DNA of 64,000 bases, from the sequence record NC_054914.1; one strand, written 5' to 3'. The position numbers and the translations under genes were made by a program. Under the pieces are notes generated by a model, which was given only the letters and a program-made list of their open reading frames with translations, was not told the origin of the DNA and made no database searches. Source of the stretch: Escherichia phage vB_EcoM-fFiEco06. The first letter of the stretch is position 1. Every line of letters starts with the position of its first letter. Shown here in pieces: positions 12,261 through 35,118 of this stretch.

Positions 12261-12316
12261 TTTAAGTATTGTAAAACATTCGATGCAATCGTTTATACTG
12301 TCGAATCATCTTTTTA
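12261..12316. repeat. Direct repeat copy 1 (about 55 bp)
   Basis: TTTAAGTATTGTAAAACATTCGATGCAATCGTTTATACTGTCGAATC, about 85% identical to the copy at 12474-12530. Confidence 0.6.
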
Positions 12317-12438
12317 GTAGGACGAGAATAGGTTCCTACGCAAGTGGTCATATGAGGGTCCGTAGAATGTCCTTTAATAAAAAGTTTCCAAACCTTACCG
12401 CCATTTAACTTTTCAGTATAAACCAATTCGGTTTTCAT
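12262..12438 (-). CDS. Small ORF (58 aa) sharing its C-terminus with the downstream-encoded 167 aa protein
   Basis: Hand translation MKTELVYTEKLNGG...IRQYKRLHRMFYNT; the last 14 aa and 3' flank repeat those of ORF 12475..12978. Confidence 0.3.
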   Translation of the reverse strand: MKTELVYTEKLNGGKVWKLFIKGHSTDPHMTTCVGTYSRPTKKMIRQYKRLHRMFYNT

Positions 12439-12473: not shown

Positions 12474-12530
12474 TTCAAGTATTGTAAAACATTTGATGCA
12501 ATCGCTTATATTGCCGAATCTTTTGGTCAG
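12474..12530. repeat. Direct repeat copy 2 (about 55 bp)
   Basis: TTCAAGTATTGTAAAACATTTGATGCAATCGCTTATATTGCCGAATC; covers the 3' end of ORF 12475..12978. Confidence 0.6.
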
Positions 12531-12978
12531 AAAAAGAAATTTGAGTTTCAAGCCATTCAATGTACTCTGCGGCAGCTTGCATCAGGTTACCTTCATAGCC
12601 ATCGTTATTTTCTTGCGCAGCTAATTTAGCTAATGCGTATGAAATACGTTCACCTTGAAAAGCGGCTTTAGGCTTCTGAACATCTTGGCTAGTTCTCTCT
12701 ACAACTTCTTCAATTTCGCCATTTTCAACGGATTCAGTATTCCACAAACACCAGTATGTAATTGGCTTATCATAGATGTTAATAATCTTTCCGTCGGAAA
12801 GTTCAATTTCAATAATTCCAGTATCAGGTTCTATATCATCTTCGCATTCTTTTGCAAGTTCACGAACTTTAAAGACAGTACCTGCACTAAGTTCCGGCCA
12901 GTAATTACATAGCCCTGTATCAACACGATTAATTCTAAACCACTTATCTACTGTAATCATGTCCCATCTCCATATCAA
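12475..12978 (-). CDS. pin: Hypothetical protein, possible Lon protease inhibitor PinA homolog
   Basis: Position immediately upstream of gene 49 as in T4; the second Met would give 161 aa. Identity not verified. Confidence 0.4.
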   Translation of the reverse strand: MIWRWDMITVDKWFRINRVDTGLCNYWPELSAGTVFKVRELAKECEDDIEPDTGIIEIELSDGKIINIYDKPITYWCLWNTESVENGEIEEVVERTSQDVQKPKAAFQGERISYALAKLAAQENNDGYEGNLMQAAAEYIEWLETQISFSDQKIRQYKRLHQMFYNT

Positions 12979-13255
12979 TTAAGTCATTTATCGTTGGTTC
13001 ATTATATACTGTTTCTTCATCAGTGTAAACCGGTTCTTCCGGCTCTGGCTCTACAGTTTCCCATCTAGCCGCCCACCAAGGTTTAACCCCGAAGCTTATT
13101 AAGTTCTTCATAATCAATCCAGGATTCTAATCCTGATGGCAAATCAGATTCAATTTCCCAAAGAAGCTCTTCAATTTTCTGAAGACGATCTAGTTCTTCG
13201 GCTGGAATAGTAACCATTGACGGAGCTCGTGATACATTAATATCGTAAATCATAT

Positions 13256-13471
13256 TTACCCCAATTTAACCATACAATCGCCGTATTTCCACTTAGAAAT
13301 AGACTTTTCACCATTAGAATAATAAACTTCGAGTTTAGCACGATTATTTTTAATTTGAATAACCTTGGCTGTCATCAAAGTTCCATACCCATAATAAACT
13401 GCAACTTCATCACCTACATATACCGCGCTTCCGCGGTAATCATGAATATAGTCAGTTCCTTCAAGCATCAT
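13256..13471 (-). CDS. Hypothetical small protein
   Basis: 71 aa ORF directly downstream of nrdC. Confidence 0.45.
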   Translation of the reverse strand: MMLEGTDYIHDYRGSAVYVGDEVAVYYGYGTLMTAKVIQIKNNRAKLEVYYSNGEKSISKWKYGDCMVKLG

Positions 13472-13731
13472 TTAAAATATTCTCGCAGTTGGTCAAATCC
13501 ACCAATATGACTTCCATCAGGAGCAAATACCTGGGGCATTGTCAAGCCGATTTGAGTATCACGACCTAGTTTAGTCAGAAGCTCAGCAATTTTCTCATCA
13601 TCAAAAACACCTTTTTCCGGCATAATGTTGATAAATTCAAACGGCTGTTTCTTCACGGTCAAAAGACGTTTTGCATTATCGCAATACACACATTTATGAA
13701 TGTTGCTATCATAACCATATACTTTAAACAT
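13468..13731 (-). CDS. nrdC: Thioredoxin (glutaredoxin-like) NrdC
   Basis: 87 aa; CVYC active site; matches T4 thioredoxin as recalled. Confidence 0.9.
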   Translation of the reverse strand: MFKVYGYDSNIHKCVYCDNAKRLLTVKKQPFEFINIMPEKGVFDDEKIAELLTKLGRDTQIGLTMPQVFAPDGSHIGGFDQLREYFK

Positions 13732-13732
13732 A

Positions 13733-13975
13733 TTATTCCTTAATTCCTAGTACTTGTTTAAAAGTCTCGTCGTAATCAAGACTTTGGCCCGTTTGTTCTT
13801 TATGTTTGTATATAATATCACTTACTTCTGATAGCATATTTTTATATGAACGAGTTAAAGCAGATTTAAGCACGCTGTATCTATCAGGAAATTTACCATG
13901 TTCATTATAATAAGCTATTGCTAATTCACGGACTGCCTTTTCAGCAGCCTCCATATATTCTTTACGCTTGGTCAT
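13733..13975 (-). CDS. Hypothetical protein
   Basis: 80 aa. Confidence 0.45.
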
Positions 13976-13977
13976 TT

Positions 13978-14367
13978 TTAATCCAAAATATTATTAGGCA
14001 TTGGTTGAACACTCACAAGTTCTTTAAAGAACTCAGTAGAGTCAGGCAATTTAACCATTTCCGGAGCATGCTTACTGAATTTATGTTTACATTGACGGCA
14101 TTTATATTCAAGCTCTGGTTTACGCCAGTTAATCAATTGAACTTGTTCAGTTCCACATTCAGGGCAATTAGGAACGTTTTTAGAAGCCCTTTCACGTCGT
14201 TCAACCATAGCCATAATAGCATCCCATGCTGGAGGTTTAAAATCTAAATCGTCGCAGCCGTGAATCTTTCCACGCATTTCCATATCATCTTCCTCACCAG
14301 CCATAATAATTTTAATTAAACTGGAATTACTTGAAGCTGCAATGTCTTCTAATAGACGCTTTTTCAT
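13978..14367 (-). CDS. Zinc-ribbon protein
   Basis: 129 aa; CPECG...CRQC pair. Confidence 0.5.
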
Positions 14368-15293
14368 TTCAATACCTCAATAGCATTACGTAAACCATTT
14401 GCTTTTGCATTAAGAGCTTTTAACAATTTGGTGTGTTCTGCAATTTGGGCTTCAACTTCAATCAAACGAGCATTGAGATATTCGCGTTCTTCACTCAGAT
14501 TATCAGCCTTTTCTGCTTTAGGTTCTTTTACAACTTGCTTATATGTATTAGGGTTCTTCAGTTTAATTAGAATGCGTGAACTGTACAGCATTGAATCATT
14601 ATCTTCGGTTTCGTCATACATTTCCACTACGTCCATCATCTCCACCATCGTGCAGAGTTTATAAGACAACGAACGAATAATTTTGTTGTGCTTATTAATT
14701 TCTCTAGCTGTCATGGTGCCGAGATTACGTGAGTAATAATAAGGAACCTGGATATTAATTAATACTGATGAACCACCTGGCTTGTGTGTTACTTCATCAG
14801 CAATAACCCAATCCTTAACATGAACTGTATTTGTACGGTCATCGCCCGCGGTAAATAGTTTACGAGCATGCTTAAAAAGCATATTCACTTGGTCATTGAA
14901 TTGACAAGCGAATTTATCAGCAAATTTAGTTTCGGGAATGGTAGATAACCAATCAGCCAAATGGGTCTTTTTAACATCGTTAACAATAGTAAATTCAACC
15001 AAATCGGTTATAGATGTCGCAGTTTTAATGAATCTCGGCTTCATAAAGTTTTTAATGTTATCGCGAGCTACAGTAGAAGATAACATACGAGAACGTTTAA
15101 ACCATTCAAGTAAATTGCCTAACGAATGAGAATAAGCGTTCTGAGTATCTTTACAGATATGATTTTCCTGGCCAACATACTGAAGGAAATCACGAAGAAT
15201 ATTATTGATTACTGCTCTGTGTCCTATCTGATAATCACGATGTTTAGTAATAAGACTGTCAAAATAATCAATATAATGTTTACGAGTTTTCAT
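14364..15293 (-). CDS. Paralog family member A: globular N-domain plus C-terminal coiled coil
   Basis: 309 aa; last 45 aa heptad-like ([42 protein letters not shown]). Confidence 0.5.
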   Translation of the reverse strand: MKTRKHYIDYFDSLITKHRDYQIGHRAVINNILRDFLQYVGQENHICKDTQNAYSHSLGNLLEWFKRSRMLSSTVARDNIKNFMKPRFIKTATSITDLVEFTIVNDVKKTHLADWLSTIPETKFADKFACQFNDQVNMLFKHARKLFTAGDDRTNTVHVKDWVIADEVTHKPGGSSVLINIQVPYYYSRNLGTMTAREINKHNKIIRSLSYKLCTMVEMMDVVEMYDETEDNDSMLYSSRILIKLKNPNTYKQVVKEPKAEKADNLSEEREYLNARLIEVEAQIAEHTKLLKALNAKANGLRNAIEVLK

Positions 15294-15347
15294 GTTCTTC
15301 TCACTTGGTTAATGGTTTATACTCCGAGCCATCCTTGGCTTTAAATT

Positions 15348-16349
15348 TTACTTAATTAACTGTAAAGCTTGTTCAAGACGATCCAGGCGATTAACAGATT
15401 CTTCCCAAATCCTTTTAGCCTGCTCATATTCTTTCTGTGCTTTATTAGAAATTTCTAGAACTTCTTTATAAGCTTTTTCTAATGCAATAACTTCTGGACG
15501 AATTTCTACCGATTCAGGTGAATCATCAAGATTATCCATTAGTTCCTCAAGGGTAGTTTCTTCTTTAGGGGTATTCACAATTTCTTCACATTTTTGTTGA
15601 TAAATTTCTTTATTAGTAGGTGAGTACGCGCACTTTACTTCACGAAGACTAACTACAATTTTATATCCTTCCCAACCGCATATATTCTTAAAAGGATAAG
15701 TATGAATATTTTCTACCGTTTCCATACAAAGTAATGCAGTCTCTAACTGACGAGTTGTATCACTAGCAATTGAGAAAAATTTATTAATGTTCTTTTGATT
15801 AGCTTCTGGTGTAAAAAATTCATAATTCACAAAAATAGCTGCTTTATTTTTATCAAGTTCATATTCTTTTATGATAATCATATCAGAAGCCAAAGGATGA
15901 ATTTGACGATAATCGCCATAACATAATTTAGAAGCTGATTTTAGAATTTGCTTCTTGAAAAGTCTAAAATTACTAATCCAACGACGAGTAAAAATATTCT
16001 CAGGGTCTTCTTTATTATTAAGATGATAAGAATTAACATCACCGAACCAACTGTATCCTACTACATCTTTGGTTCGTTTAATTTCTTTCCCAAAATTACT
16101 AAGAATATCTTGATTAACTAAATATGAAAGAAGACGAGACCCTTTAAAGGTTTCCTTAATATCATCTTTATCTACACGACTAGAAATTTTATGAACTTCA
16201 TGAATAAATTTGCTGGAAGAAACAATACTTGCATCAGTATTGTTGAGCCACTGATTGATAATAGAAAGAACACTATTCTGACTAGACATAGGTTTAACTT
16301 TATCATCAATAACGCTATTGAATGATTTGATATATTCGTTACGAGTCAT
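15348..16349 (-). CDS. Paralog family member B: globular N-domain plus C-terminal coiled coil
   Basis: Start moved to Met11 (GAGGAGA RBS) because the early promoter at 16376-16407 overlaps the longer ORF start; coiled-coil tail. Confidence 0.5.
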   Translation of the reverse strand: MTRNEYIKSFNSVIDDKVKPMSSQNSVLSIINQWLNNTDASIVSSSKFIHEVHKISSRVDKDDIKETFKGSRLLSYLVNQDILSNFGKEIKRTKDVVGYSWFGDVNSYHLNNKEDPENIFTRRWISNFRLFKKQILKSASKLCYGDYRQIHPLASDMIIIKEYELDKNKAAIFVNYEFFTPEANQKNINKFFSIASDTTRQLETALLCMETVENIHTYPFKNICGWEGYKIVVSLREVKCAYSPTNKEIYQQKCEEIVNTPKEETTLEELMDNLDDSPESVEIRPEVIALEKAYKEVLEISNKAQKEYEQAKRIWEESVNRLDRLEQALQLIK

Positions 16350-16375
16350 ATTAATCTCCTCAGTAGAAAGTAAGA

Positions 16376-16407
16376 ACATTATACCACATCCTTGTGGTAA
16401 AGTAAAC
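16376..16407 (-). promoter_or_regulatory. T4-type early promoter (-35 GTTTAC, extended -10 TGGTATAAT)
   Basis: Minus strand GTTTAC...TGTGGTATAATG. Confidence 0.55.
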
Positions 16408-17426
16408 TAGTTCAGCGCATTTAGTGCATTGTTCAATTTAGAACGTTGCTTCGTGAGATTTTTGACTTTTTCTTGAGCTTTTTCTAGCATCTTTTCAGCT
16501 TCTAGCACTTCATTAGTTGCTTTAACGAGTTCATCATCTACTGCCTTGATAGACTTCTCAATCGCATCCGCGTGCCATTTTTCAACAGGTTTAAGACTCG
16601 GATTTTCAATAGGAAGAAAATTCACTTTATTGAATTTCCATGCATCTTTATTACCTGAGCTATACATCCAAAATTTAGGATCGTTTGATGAGCAATTAGA
16701 TAAATTTAAGTTATCTTGCACTTCCTGCTTTTTCTCTTGCGGGACTTCATCCTTTCTCAAAAAATCGTATTTAAATGAAACGATCATATCAAGTTCATAC
16801 GTTGTTGTATGTTCCCAATTTCGCTCAAAATGAGGTAAAATCTTAGACTGAACAGCGGCAACAACATCCATATACTTAAATGCTTCTGTCAACTGTGATT
16901 TAAGGCATTCACAAATTGAAAGAGAATTTTTTGTATTAGGTTTAAAGCTAATTCGTGCAGTTCTATTATTTTCTTTTAATGGTCTTACTTCCATCTGAAG
17001 AGTATAACCATCAAATTTCAGGTTCTTTAAGTTAATGTCAGAACCTTTTAATCGACTAGCCGTCGACAAAATTTGCTTTAATTGTTTACGGAATAGAGCA
17101 ATAAATCTCCATTCAAGACGGTAATGATTTGGATTAAAAAATCCTGTTGATAAATCAACCTTACTCTGACCAACGCCTTGAACAAATAGAGGATTTTTAT
17201 AATCAATAGTTTTACAGAAATCGGTGAGCTGTTCGCGAGCAGTCATTTGCGTAATATATCCAGCTTTATCAAAATGTCGCAGCCATTCACTGCTATTCAT
17301 ATACTTAAAGTGAATGGAACTATTAACTCTATCAGGGTCTAAATTATTTTGGCACAAAAATGTCATAACATCACGAGTATAACTGGCATTACGAACCATA
17401 TCTTCAATTTGAGAACGAGTTTTCAT
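16407..17426 (-). CDS. Paralog family member C: globular N-domain plus C-terminal coiled coil
   Basis: 339 aa; N-terminus MKTR... like member A; coiled-coil tail. Confidence 0.5.
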   Translation of the reverse strand: MKTRSQIEDMVRNASYTRDVMTFLCQNNLDPDRVNSSIHFKYMNSSEWLRHFDKAGYITQMTAREQLTDFCKTIDYKNPLFVQGVGQSKVDLSTGFFNPNHYRLEWRFIALFRKQLKQILSTASRLKGSDINLKNLKFDGYTLQMEVRPLKENNRTARISFKPNTKNSLSICECLKSQLTEAFKYMDVVAAVQSKILPHFERNWEHTTTYELDMIVSFKYDFLRKDEVPQEKKQEVQDNLNLSNCSSNDPKFWMYSSGNKDAWKFNKVNFLPIENPSLKPVEKWHADAIEKSIKAVDDELVKATNEVLEAEKMLEKAQEKVKNLTKQRSKLNNALNALN

Positions 17427-17434
17427 GGTGTTCC

Positions 17435-18337
17435 TTAAAATTTAAGTAAATCAACGATTTTAATTAATTTTTCACGCTCAGATTTAGCTTTACTACTCAA
17501 TCCAGATAGTCTGAAAATTTCATCATCATATTGCTGAATAGAAATATTTAGCTCTTCAATCTGCTTATTAAAATAAGCAATTTGTTCAGAATGTTTTTCA
17601 TTACTGCGAACTGGTACAGGTTTTGTAGGTAATTTAGATGAACTGGATTCATTCGGGCGATAAATTAAAATACAACTTGAACCAATCGGACATTTAGCAC
17701 CAGATGAATATTCTAATGTTCCAGCTTCTTTTAAAACTTCAAAAGCTAAACAGAGATGATGCCCCATATTGACATAATCTGTAGAGTGAGCTCTGATGTA
17801 ATAATCATCTCCACGAGTACTAAATTTAAAGCATTTAAGGTCTTCTGTATTATTGGTCTTAAAAATCATTTGTTTATCTAGACCTTTAGCTAATCGAGCG
17901 CCTAATGCTAATAATCGTCGTTGATTTTCCCACAAATCCACAATCATTTGGTCAAATGATAATTTCGGCATTAGTCGACCATAAAGGTCATATCCTTTAT
18001 TATAATTGCGAAGGATTTCACTCGCATTAATACGAGACAACGCTCCAATTTTATTAAGGGCTTTCATGATGCGATTAGATAAACCCATTCCAGATCCGTT
18101 TGTTCGTTGCAAATGTTTATCTAATCCAAACCCAATATCAACTTTAAATTTATCTAAAATTTCAGCATGAACATCTCTGTCAATAACATTCAAATCCAAA
18201 GTTGGGTTAAATCTATGAAAAAATTTATCTGGCTCTCCACGACGAAGTACAGTCCATTCATTTAATTTTTTATTAACTAAAGATTTAATTACTGCATTGA
18301 CATTATTAATTACTACTGACATATTTTTCTCACTCAA
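17435..18337 (-). CDS. Paralog family member D: globular N-domain plus C-terminal coiled coil
   Basis: 300 aa; coiled-coil tail. Confidence 0.5.
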   Translation of the reverse strand: MSEKNMSVVINNVNAVIKSLVNKKLNEWTVLRRGEPDKFFHRFNPTLDLNVIDRDVHAEILDKFKVDIGFGLDKHLQRTNGSGMGLSNRIMKALNKIGALSRINASEILRNYNKGYDLYGRLMPKLSFDQMIVDLWENQRRLLALGARLAKGLDKQMIFKTNNTEDLKCFKFSTRGDDYYIRAHSTDYVNMGHHLCLAFEVLKEAGTLEYSSGAKCPIGSSCILIYRPNESSSSKLPTKPVPVRSNEKHSEQIAYFNKQIEELNISIQQYDDEIFRLSGLSSKAKSEREKLIKIVDLLKF

Positions 18338-18738
18338 TTTTCAATTTTACTAAATACACAGAATATGATGGAAAAGACTATATAAGCACCGCATACAGAT
18401 TGAACTAATACCATTCCAAAGAACCAAACAATATTATCAAACAATGTCTGTTTTACGTCGAAAGGACGTAAACTTACAGTAATATTATCGCCTTTTTCTA
18501 TTGATGAATACATCTCTGGTGAAATATATTCACTAAATCTATAACCGTCTTTGAGTTCATATACGGCAATAAACGATAAACTAGACCCCTTTCCTTGAGT
18601 TCCTGTAAGGGTATTAACTACAGTAACATCATAATCTTTATAATGCATATAATCATTAATTGCATAATAACCATATGCAACTACTACACATAAACAACAT
18701 ATCAATAAATTCAATCTTTTAATTATCAACTGTTTCAT
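18334..18738 (-). CDS. Membrane protein
   Basis: 134 aa; hydrophobic segments at both N- and C-termini. Confidence 0.5.
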   Translation of the reverse strand: MKQLIIKRLNLLICCLCVVVAYGYYAINDYMHYKDYDVTVVNTLTGTQGKGSSLSFIAVYELKDGYRFSEYISPEMYSSIEKGDNITVSLRPFDVKQTLFDNIVWFFGMVLVQSVCGAYIVFSIIFCVFSKIEN

Positions 18739-18765
18739 AATAATCTCAATTAAAAGGGCTTAGAA

Positions 18766-18797
18766 CCATTATACCATCCTTGGTATAAAGCGGTTAT
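18766..18797 (-). promoter_or_regulatory. Early promoter candidate (extended -10 TGGTATAAT, weak -35)
   Basis: Minus strand GGATGGTATAATGG. Confidence 0.4.
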
Positions 18798-19321
18798 GCG
18801 AGTACCGTCTTTAACCGTTCTTCAAACTTCCGAAGAGTATTTTGGCGTTCAGCTCTTTGCTTTTTGTAAGTTTCAATACGCTCTGAAATGAGAGTGTATC
18901 GTTCATTTACTGATTCTTTCATAAAATCAGGAATTTCACGAGAAGCTTTAATCTCGTCAAATTTATCAATAACTGCTTGCTCTTCAGCAATTAAGTTATC
19001 ATACATCAAAATATCTTTCTTGATGAACTCAATATCTTCTTGAGTTACACGAGATAATTTAGATGCTTTATCCTTTTTGTACTGTTCGTTAGTATCACGA
19101 GACCAGTGTAATGTACGATTTTTATTCGTATTCTTGTAAATTTCTACAATACCAATCTCATCGATAATAACGATCCAATTCCAACGAGATTTGTAAATTT
19201 GTCCTCCGTCAACCGTGATTTCACCTCCGATTGAGATGTCATTAAAGAACTTGCTTTGTGCTTCAGATTTAAATTTACCATCGTTGTAATTTACCAGGTT
19301 GAAAATATCTTTAGCGTTCAT
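18794..19321 (-). CDS. Hypothetical protein
   Basis: 175 aa; GGAGGA RBS and early promoter upstream. Confidence 0.5.
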   Translation of the reverse strand: MNAKDIFNLVNYNDGKFKSEAQSKFFNDISIGGEITVDGGQIYKSRWNWIVIIDEIGIVEIYKNTNKNRTLHWSRDTNEQYKKDKASKLSRVTQEDIEFIKKDILMYDNLIAEEQAVIDKFDEIKASREIPDFMKESVNERYTLISERIETYKKQRAERQNTLRKFEERLKTVLA

Positions 19322-19346
19322 TTTGTGTTCCTCCGTAGTTGATAGT

Positions 19347-19379
19347 TGTATAGTACCACAGAGGAACAGTCTTGTAAAC
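19347..19379 (-). promoter_or_regulatory. T4-type early promoter
   Basis: Minus strand GTTTACAAGACTGTTCCTCTGTGGTACTATAC, followed by GGAGGA RBS. Confidence 0.55.
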
Positions 19380-19381
19380 CA

Positions 19382-19696
19382 CTAAAAGAAACTTCTTTCA
19401 CAATTTTTTCCACTGAACCATGCGCTTACCGCTTTCTTAGTCTCAGGAGCAGTGTTATCCATAAACCATTCAAAGGCAGCCTTTTTATGATTCTGGAGGG
19501 CTTCTCGGGCTTTAATCTGCTCACGGTCTATTAACACTAACATATGAGCCTTTCTTGTCACCATGGGCTTCTTATGATTTTTTGAATACTCCCAGTCATT
19601 TGTCCATCGCATTGTCGTTGCGAACTTAAATACTGCTTCTTTAATTTTAGTTTCGTAAATTTCACGAGCCTTTGAGTATAACATCATTACCTCCAT
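19382..19696 (-). CDS. Hypothetical protein
   Basis: 104 aa. Confidence 0.4.
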   Translation of the reverse strand: MEVMMLYSKAREIYETKIKEAVFKFATTMRWTNDWEYSKNHKKPMVTRKAHMLVLIDREQIKAREALQNHKKAAFEWFMDNTAPETKKAVSAWFSGKNCERSFF

Positions 19697-34524: not shown

Positions 34525-35118
34525 TTATTTCAGAGAATTAATGTATTCCTGAACATCGGCAGAGGTAGTTTCAACCCCAGAAATATTACCGTTAAAGGTT
34601 TCAACTCGAGCAAGGGTATCTTCAATATCAACCTTAGTCAGTGCTGCAATTTCAACTACATCATCAGCAGTACTAATTCCAAGGGCATTCGCTGCACGAG
34701 TTTCACGGATATATTCCAATTTAACCGCAAGTTCTTGACGAGCATCATCTAACTCAACTACTTTCTTGGCGATTTCAATTCGCATTTCAGCATAACCGTC
34801 AGCCTTAGTAGTCAACTGCTCAGCTGTTCGACGATATAGTAAACCGAGTTTAGCATGCATTGTTACATCTTGGCCTTCGGAAAGAAGTTTACGAATTTCA
34901 CGCTCTTTTGATTCGGCCTGTCGATTCTTTTCGATAACAAGTTCACGAATACGTTTTTCTTCGTTAATAGATTTAACAGAAGCAGTTTTTAGATCTTTAA
35001 TTTTATCAAGTAGTTTTGCTGCTGCAGCAGTATACTGTTCTTCGACAGATAGATTTTTAGCCATAGCAGAACCAAGTTTAGTGCGAATAAACTCAACAAT
35101 TTTCTTCAGTGTGTTCAT
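34525..35118 (-). CDS. Coiled-coil protein (PspA-like heptad character)
   Basis: 197 aa, largely helical charged repeats. Confidence 0.45.

Follow-up and report, generated by a model that had tools for sequence, protein, structure and literature searches.

The protein NrdC.5 of bacteriophage T4 lets this phage escape Dsr1, a SIR2 NADase (PMC9391042). A T4 clone that lacks a block of genes fails to plate on strain ECOR17, or on MG1655 carrying the ECOR17 dsr1 gene (Srikant, Guegler and Laub 2022, PMC9391042), and plasmid-borne T4 nrdC.5 restores the plating of the deletion clone on MG1655 carrying dsr1 (PMC9391042). According to a 2026 preprint, Escherichia coli Dsr1 is triggered by the major capsid protein through a sensor homologous to that of Avs7, and a protein made early in infection could thus pre-empt the trigger. 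Here, we describe a computational analysis of an array of four genes, the orthologues of T4 nrdC.3, nrdC.4, nrdC.5 and nrdC.6, in a 64,000-nucleotide (nt) stretch of Escherichia phage vB_EcoM-fFiEco06 (NC_054914.1), referred to in full as the window. We consider it probable that these genes encode an expanded family of early anti-defence proteins in which target-specific heads are carried on a shared oligomerising tail.

The closest described system is T4 NrdC.5 itself, a member of DUF7235 (PF23882). The third gene of the array, C, is its orthologue, occupying the same position and encoding a protein that is 91.4% identical. The other three, A, B and D, share the architecture of NrdC.5 as remote homologues; they differ from it in lacking a PF23882 match, and their relation to C is visible at the level of profile-profile comparison only. 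The paralogy and the coiled-coil tail are not described in the publication on NrdC.5 (PMC9391042), nor did the literature that we searched describe a superfamily link among nrdC.3-6 or their common head-plus-tail design. An initial sequence-only reading of the window was made without knowledge of the published inhibition of Dsr1 by the T4 orthologue of C.

Two further systems invite comparison. DSAD1 of phage SPbeta, an inhibitor of DSR2, resembles NrdC.5 in what it does, blocking an NADase of the defence-associated sirtuin type that a virion protein would otherwise activate. The analogy is one of function, the binding mode of DSAD1 being known from cryo-electron microscopy, unlike that of NrdC.5, and the targets differ in what they sense, the tail tube protein in the case of DSR2 and the major capsid protein in that of Dsr1. 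The T-even internal proteins (IPI, IPII, IPIII and Bas37_0260) likewise form a clustered, accessory anti-defence family in which a short module is conserved and the remainder is diversified or swapped between phages. In these injected proteins, however, the conserved module lies at the N-terminus and is a capsid-targeting signal, whereas in the array proteins it is the coiled coil at the C-terminus, and the array genes are expressed early from the genome; the two groups have no sequence relationship.

The array consists of four consecutive open reading frames (ORFs) on the minus strand, 14364-18337, whose identities were established by alignment to the T4 reference annotation:

14364..15293, minus strand: gene A, nrdC.3 orthologue, 309 amino acids (aa), phrog_1435 (alignment to T4; PHROG profile)
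15348..16349, minus strand: gene B, nrdC.4 orthologue, 333 aa, start corrected (alignment to T4; ribosome-binding site; homologues)
16407..17426, minus strand: gene C, nrdC.5 orthologue, 339 aa, Pfam DUF7235 (Pfam E 1.2e-124)
17435..18322, minus strand: gene D, nrdC.6 orthologue, 295 aa, start corrected, the most distant member (alignment to T4; homologues)

The phage belongs to the genus Tequatrovirus, and the 3,974-bp array region is 100% identical to that of Escherichia phage vB_EcoM-fHoEco02 (MG781191.1); 656 phage records match it at an identity of at least 80%, and matches to the individual array proteins occur in 652-740 records. Relative to T4, NrdC.3 is 60.6% and NrdC.4 91.0% identical. 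The start of B was moved to the ATG at 16349. A GAGGAG ribosome-binding site precedes this codon, and the alternative ATG of the longer ORF, at 16379, falls within the -10 box of a putative promoter; the resulting length is that of the T4 protein. The start of D at the ATG at 18322 agrees with its homologues. Thus the four tandem paralogous genes of the sequence-only reading stand, but its length range of 300-343 aa does not, since B and D are 333 and 295 aa after correction; similarly, the MKTR/MTR N-termini that it noted are present in A, B and C and missing from D. In many records the array genes are labelled 'thioredoxin', which is annotation spill-over from the nearby nrdC gene.

The homology of A and B is certain from their sequences. 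The two proteins match by blastp (expectation value, E, 2e-7) and by hhalign (probability 97.6%, E 3e-12), both match phrog_1435 over their full length (E 2.9e-115 for A and 8.5e-166 for B), and homologues of B carry PF26897. C matches PF23882 over its full length with a score of 416 bits against a gathering cut-off of 30, and none of A, B and D matches this family with an E of 1 or lower. A search of the NrdC.5 profile against 1.84 billion proteins returned 13 matches only and did not reach the other array families directly. Once distant NrdC.5 relatives from this exhaustive profile search had been added, C aligned end to end with the A/B profiles (E 9.8e-6, 276 columns). With the tails removed, the head of C scored 41.5 against A/B, compared with 13.6 +/- 2.4 for a column-shuffle null (z 11.8). 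A 324-aa protein of Klebsiella phage KP179 also matches A/B (probability 90.5%).

The position of D requires more caution. This protein matches phrog_2257 over its full length (E 3.9e-151), and its homologues carry PF26899. Conceivably, true paralogy is limited to A, B and C, and D (NrdC.6) is an unrelated protein that has converged on a similar size and on a C-terminal coiled coil. The weak E values of the D family profile, 0.014 against A/B and 0.15 against C, would fit such convergence, as would the absence of the MKTR/MTR N-terminus. We nevertheless judge it improbable, given that the D head alone scores above all 40 column shuffles, with a z of 3.8 against A/B that rises to 5.9 once C joins the target profile. 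Moreover, two signature motifs, K-x-G/S-x-h-S/T...D/E-x-L-x-N/D-F/Y-x-K and A-S/R-K/R-L-x-x-G-D, align at collinear positions in all four heads, and the order of secondary-structure elements in the predicted structure of D is nearly the same as in that of B. In a Foldseek comparison, the B model matches the BFVD model of JS10 NrdC.6 (E 4.5e-5, probability 1.0), and a 292-aa protein of Yersinia phage phiR1-RT bridges the families, with full-length matches to A/B (E 5e-4) as well as to D (E 1.5e-3). From these profile and model comparisons we conclude that all four proteins, whose pairwise identity is 16-26%, belong to one superfamily, with moderate confidence in the case of D; three separate Pfam/PHROG families would then merge into one.

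The sequence-only reading had been unable to assign any domain to the array proteins, which no longer holds, given DUF7235 in C and PF26897 or PF26899 in homologues of the other families. Beyond DUF7235 in C, scans with Pfam, NCBIfam and PADLOC gave nothing meaningful, and when the family profiles of B and C were run against PDB sequences, nothing emerged except designed helical repeats, TPR proteins and noise.

Structure predictions with AlphaFold2 (AF2) cover B and D. The B model (predicted local distance difference test score, pLDDT, 84.8) comprises an N-terminal helical bundle and an alpha/beta region over residues 1-240, a disordered linker of low confidence, and a single long helix spanning residues 285-332; the D model (pLDDT 76.3) ends in a helix at residues 245-294. 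The predicted coiled-coil tails are as follows:

14367..14498, minus strand: tail of A, residues 266-309; 11 of 13 a/d positions hydrophobic; heptad score against shuffles p = 0.005
15351..15497, minus strand: tail of B, residues 285-333; AF2 helix 285-332; 12 of 14 a/d positions hydrophobic
16410..16580, minus strand: tail of C, residues 283-339; 15 of 16 a/d positions hydrophobic; none of 200 shuffles reaches the heptad score
17438..17599, minus strand: tail of D, residues 242-295; AF2 helix 245-294; 12 of 15 a/d positions hydrophobic

Each of the four tails contains six to eight uninterrupted heptads that extend to the C-terminus, the final core residue lying two to three residues before the end in all four proteins. 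The unbroken heptads, hydrophobic a/d core and long helix that characterise a coiled coil are thus found in the array tails. Heptad scores exceed those of shuffled sequences for A, C and D, and that of C is the highest in the window. When all candidate genes of the window that encode at least 100 aa, 66 in number, are ranked by C-terminal heptad score, C, A, nrdC.8 and B (tied), and D provide five of the top six; the probability that four named genes all rank in the top six by chance is approximately 2e-5. Among distant orthologues, conservation is highest in the tail for each of the three families measured, with identities of 59% for the tail and 44% for the head in the B family, 62% and 41% in the D family, and 42% and 30% in the C family. 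The layout of globular domain plus C-terminal heptad tail and the conservation of the tail, both claimed from sequence at the outset, are borne out by these heptads, the two models and the family comparisons. The common design would consist of an alpha/beta head of approximately 220-250 aa, a disordered linker, and a C-terminal helix of 45-55 aa with unbroken heptads.

Two other proteins in the window have comparable C-termini. The nrdC.8 gene (18794-19321, 175 aa), just upstream of the array, encodes a heptad-rich tail (a/d 9 of 12) with the third-best score; nrdC.8 was considered as a truncated relative of the array genes and rejected, its head scoring inside the shuffle null and only the type of tail being held in common. 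A 197-aa protein encoded outside the array (34525-35118, minus strand) has the fifth-best score, again with 9 of 12 a/d positions hydrophobic.

The superfamily is probably confined to T4-like phages (Straboviridae), with one copy in distant genera and an expansion to three or four in the T-even coliphage genera. The B model matches approximately 20 uncharacterised proteins of 280-375 aa in T4-like phages of Acinetobacter, Klebsiella, Serratia, Erwinia, Yersinia and Pectobacterium. A single candidate member lies beside nrdC in Jiaodavirus (a firm assignment), Tegunavirus (moderate), and Muldoonvirus and Lazarusvirus (weak), whereas three copies are present in Gaprivervirus, Dhakavirus and Mosigvirus and four in Tequatrovirus. 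A scan of bacterial reference genomes with two peptide patterns found no relatives.

The array varies from one to four copies in nature and decays in laboratory strains. In phage ACG-C40 nrdC.6 is the sole intact array gene, whereas phage Pinarejo has lost nrdC.6. In a laboratory T2 record (PV648363.1, L006) nrdC.4, nrdC.6 and nrdC.7 are each broken into two ORFs. The nrdC.6 gene of the T4 reference (L001 10067-10894, 275 aa) has a frameshifted coiled-coil tail, the intact ending …ISIQQYDDEIFRLSGL…LLKS lying in another frame; strain T4D has an intact nrdC.6 of 891 nt. Within Tequatrovirus the head of nrdC.3 is, as judged from the alignment to T4, an allelic cassette between conserved ends: over 14425-15171 the DNA is 57-71% identical to T4, between flanks of at least 90%, and the protein is 90% identical over residues 1-40, 35-57% over residues 101-265, and 80% in the tail. 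Two further proteins are P0056, a fusion of nrdC.5 and nrdC.3, and P0230, encoded directly upstream of nrdC.4, in which an unrelated 118-aa head is joined to a tail identical to that of NrdC.5 in vB_EcoM-fFiEco06. In addition, the NrdC.6 protein of Shigella phage Sf25 (P0121, 378 aa) contains an internal tandem duplication of approximately 83 residues, which takes in the last part of the head, the linker and the first part of the tail.

The sequence-only reading had also regarded the array as typical of proteins under diversifying selection, and this suggestion is not supported. Among eight Tequatroviruses, the Nei-Gojobori ratio of nonsynonymous to synonymous substitution rates (dN/dS) is 0.28 for nrdC.3, 0.25 for nrdC.4, 0.21 for nrdC.5 and 0.11 for nrdC.6, all well under 1, compared with 0.01-0.09 for neighbouring core genes and approximately 0.2 for small accessory genes. 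In sliding windows the ratio stays below 1 except in the disordered linker of B and in one window of noise, and the one window above 1 in B depends on a proportion of synonymous differences (pS) of 0.015. The array is under relaxed constraint, and positive selection is not demonstrated. Its diversity has other sources, namely the old divergence of the paralogs, the allelic head cassette of nrdC.3 and gene loss.

The putative control signals of the array are of the early type:

16378..16407, minus strand: early-type sigma-70 promoter for nrdC.4 and nrdC.3, GTTTACT-spacer-TGGTATAAT (consensus match)
18768..18776, minus strand: extended -10 element TGGTATAAT upstream of nrdC.7 (consensus match)

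The element at 16378-16407 agrees with the earlier suggestion that at least one array gene has its own early promoter, as far as a consensus match can indicate. Further early-type elements match the consensus upstream of nrdC.7 and nrdC.8, and the extended -10 element at 18768..18776 is likely to be the promoter of an nrdC.7-nrdC.6-nrdC.5 transcript. Co-transcription is suggested by the close spacing of the genes, C and D being separated by 8 nt and D starting 11 nt past the end of nrdC.7. A motif search found no late promoter motif TATAAATA within 13900-19500. Between nrdC.4 and nrdC.3, at 15324-15341, lies a short GC-containing hairpin with the core GCCAAGGATGGC; the terminator scan flagged the plus strand only.

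We favour, as the probable explanation of the array, the view that its products are early, dispensable accessory proteins that would neutralise host anti-phage defences. Each paralog may use its head as a target-specific module to bind a different host defence protein before the late protein that triggers this defence appears, and the tail may render the protein oligomeric, conferring avidity for, or sequestering, defence proteins that are themselves oligomeric. Because the heads of A, B and D share only 16-26% identity with one another and with the head of C, Dsr1 cannot be assumed to be a common target, and nrdC.3, nrdC.4 and nrdC.6 may counter other defences. The genomic surroundings are those of a counter-defence island: gp49.2 inhibits OLD (PMC13096335), nrdC.1 inhibits Septu, and bas37_0203, which its position directly after the nrdC.7 homologue and its length of 528 nt identify as the nrdC.8 orthologue, inhibits Druantia III. 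In HIDEN-SEQ experiments nrdC.3-6 and their phage Bas37 orthologues are classed as 'Non-essential' on K-12. Several observations weigh against this explanation. Functional data are available for NrdC.5 alone, and as a complementation phenotype; for nrdC.3, nrdC.4 and nrdC.6 we came across no report of a phenotype, and their log2 fold changes in one HIDEN-SEQ comparison are -0.31 to +0.47 and not significant. The homology of D is supported by several moderate signals and by no single strong one. The tails of the paralogs share their heptad register and nothing beyond the heptad pattern (p 0.1-0.3 against heptad-preserving shuffles). A common ancestry of the tails, for which C-terminus-anchored alignments were tried, was rejected, since these alignments beat full shuffles and failed against heptad-preserving ones; the register is common, and a sequence ancestry of the tails is not demonstrable. 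Finally, P0230 comes from one 803-bp metagenomic contig, which may be a chimeric assembly.

If the array proteins are not dedicated inhibitors, they might instead form an early host-takeover or accessory family that remodels host metabolism, transcription or the nucleoid, the effect of NrdC.5 on Dsr1 being an indirect one exerted through the NAD+ balance or through delayed or masked sensing of the capsid protein. The published result on NrdC.5 and Dsr1, a complementation phenotype, leaves room for such an effect, and two basic, conserved motifs are common to the four heads. XerC/XerD-type tyrosine recombinases, moreover, have an N-terminal helical domain to which residues 30-88 of A show a weak resemblance, a possible hint of nucleic-acid binding; the NCBIfam matches (E 9e-4 to 0.04) lie far below their cut-offs, and Pfam gives no support for the resemblance. 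Four genes that are members of the array or flank it in the island have defence-specific phenotypes, however, and the array genes are fully dispensable on K-12. The natural loss of copies and their decay in laboratory strains fit host-specific accessory functions better than a general takeover, and neither an enzyme-like fold nor a catalytic motif was detected in the array proteins. We therefore regard host takeover as rather unlikely. Far less credible still is the possibility that the heads are early-made mimics of a virion tail protein, decoys that would occupy tail-sensing defence sensors. It arises from a resemblance to the tail terminator fold (lambda gpU, T5 p142, and Mu and SPP1 gp17-like proteins), and sensors of tail terminator and tail tube proteins do exist in Avs15, Avs16 and DSR2. 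Yet the structural scores lie under the level usual for homology, the array proteins have, beyond this fold, a coiled-coil tail and, at the N-terminus, a helical bundle, and no sequence signal accompanies the resemblance, profile searches against PDB sequences yielding no tail protein. A significant and reproducible structural match was not obtained; the D model does not reproduce the resemblance, which stands as an unconfirmed lead. Dsr1, the sole known target, is triggered by the major capsid protein rather than by a tail protein. The label 'tail sheath stabilizer and completion protein' attached to nrdC.5 of phage T6 was rejected as evidence, being a propagated mis-annotation in a record whose neighbouring labels are plainly shifted.

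Several other features were noted in the DNA flanking the array. A 58-aa ORF at 12262-12438, just downstream of pin (encoding the Lon protease inhibitor; 12475-12978), ends in …IRQYKRLHRMFYNT, which is near-identical to the C-terminus of pin, …IRQYKRLHQMFYNT. The segment 12264-12563 has no T4 counterpart and may have arisen by partial duplication, or as an insertion with the C-terminal segment of pin. The gp49.1-49.3 region (13014-13524) is 31-63% identical to T4, with many gaps, between flanks of 97-99%; the same region in T6 includes gp49.2, the reported OLD inhibitor, and a second counter-defence locus is thus also allelically replaced in this phage. Adjacent to the array, nrdC.2 (13978-14367) encodes 129 aa, compared with 104 aa in T4, and its 3' portion (13975-14124) is 25% identical to T4, with large gaps. 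The protein bears a zinc-ribbon signature (Pfam Zn_ribbon_8, E 6.6e-6, under the cut-off).

T4 is the best-studied phage, and yet current annotation leaves these four large early genes as hypothetical or gives them the wrong label 'thioredoxin'. Through their link to NrdC.5, whose inhibition of Dsr1 is published, three orphan genes become immediate candidates for new anti-defence factors. The design of head plus tail is separable and can be probed by truncations and domain swaps. Differences between natural T-even phages in the number and alleles of array genes would then serve as a marker from which the host defences that a phage can overcome could be read, which is relevant to the choice of phages for therapy. 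As a more tentative extension, which we put forward as possible rather than probable, the array may constitute a modular counter-defence platform in which the conserved C-terminal coiled coil is used for oligomerisation or docking and the heads are duplicated, swapped and lost on it by recombination, each paralog silencing a different immune sensor: Dsr1 in the case of NrdC.5, and three others in the cases of NrdC.3, NrdC.4 and NrdC.6. If this is true, the platform would be the phage counterpart of a multigene immune-evasion family.

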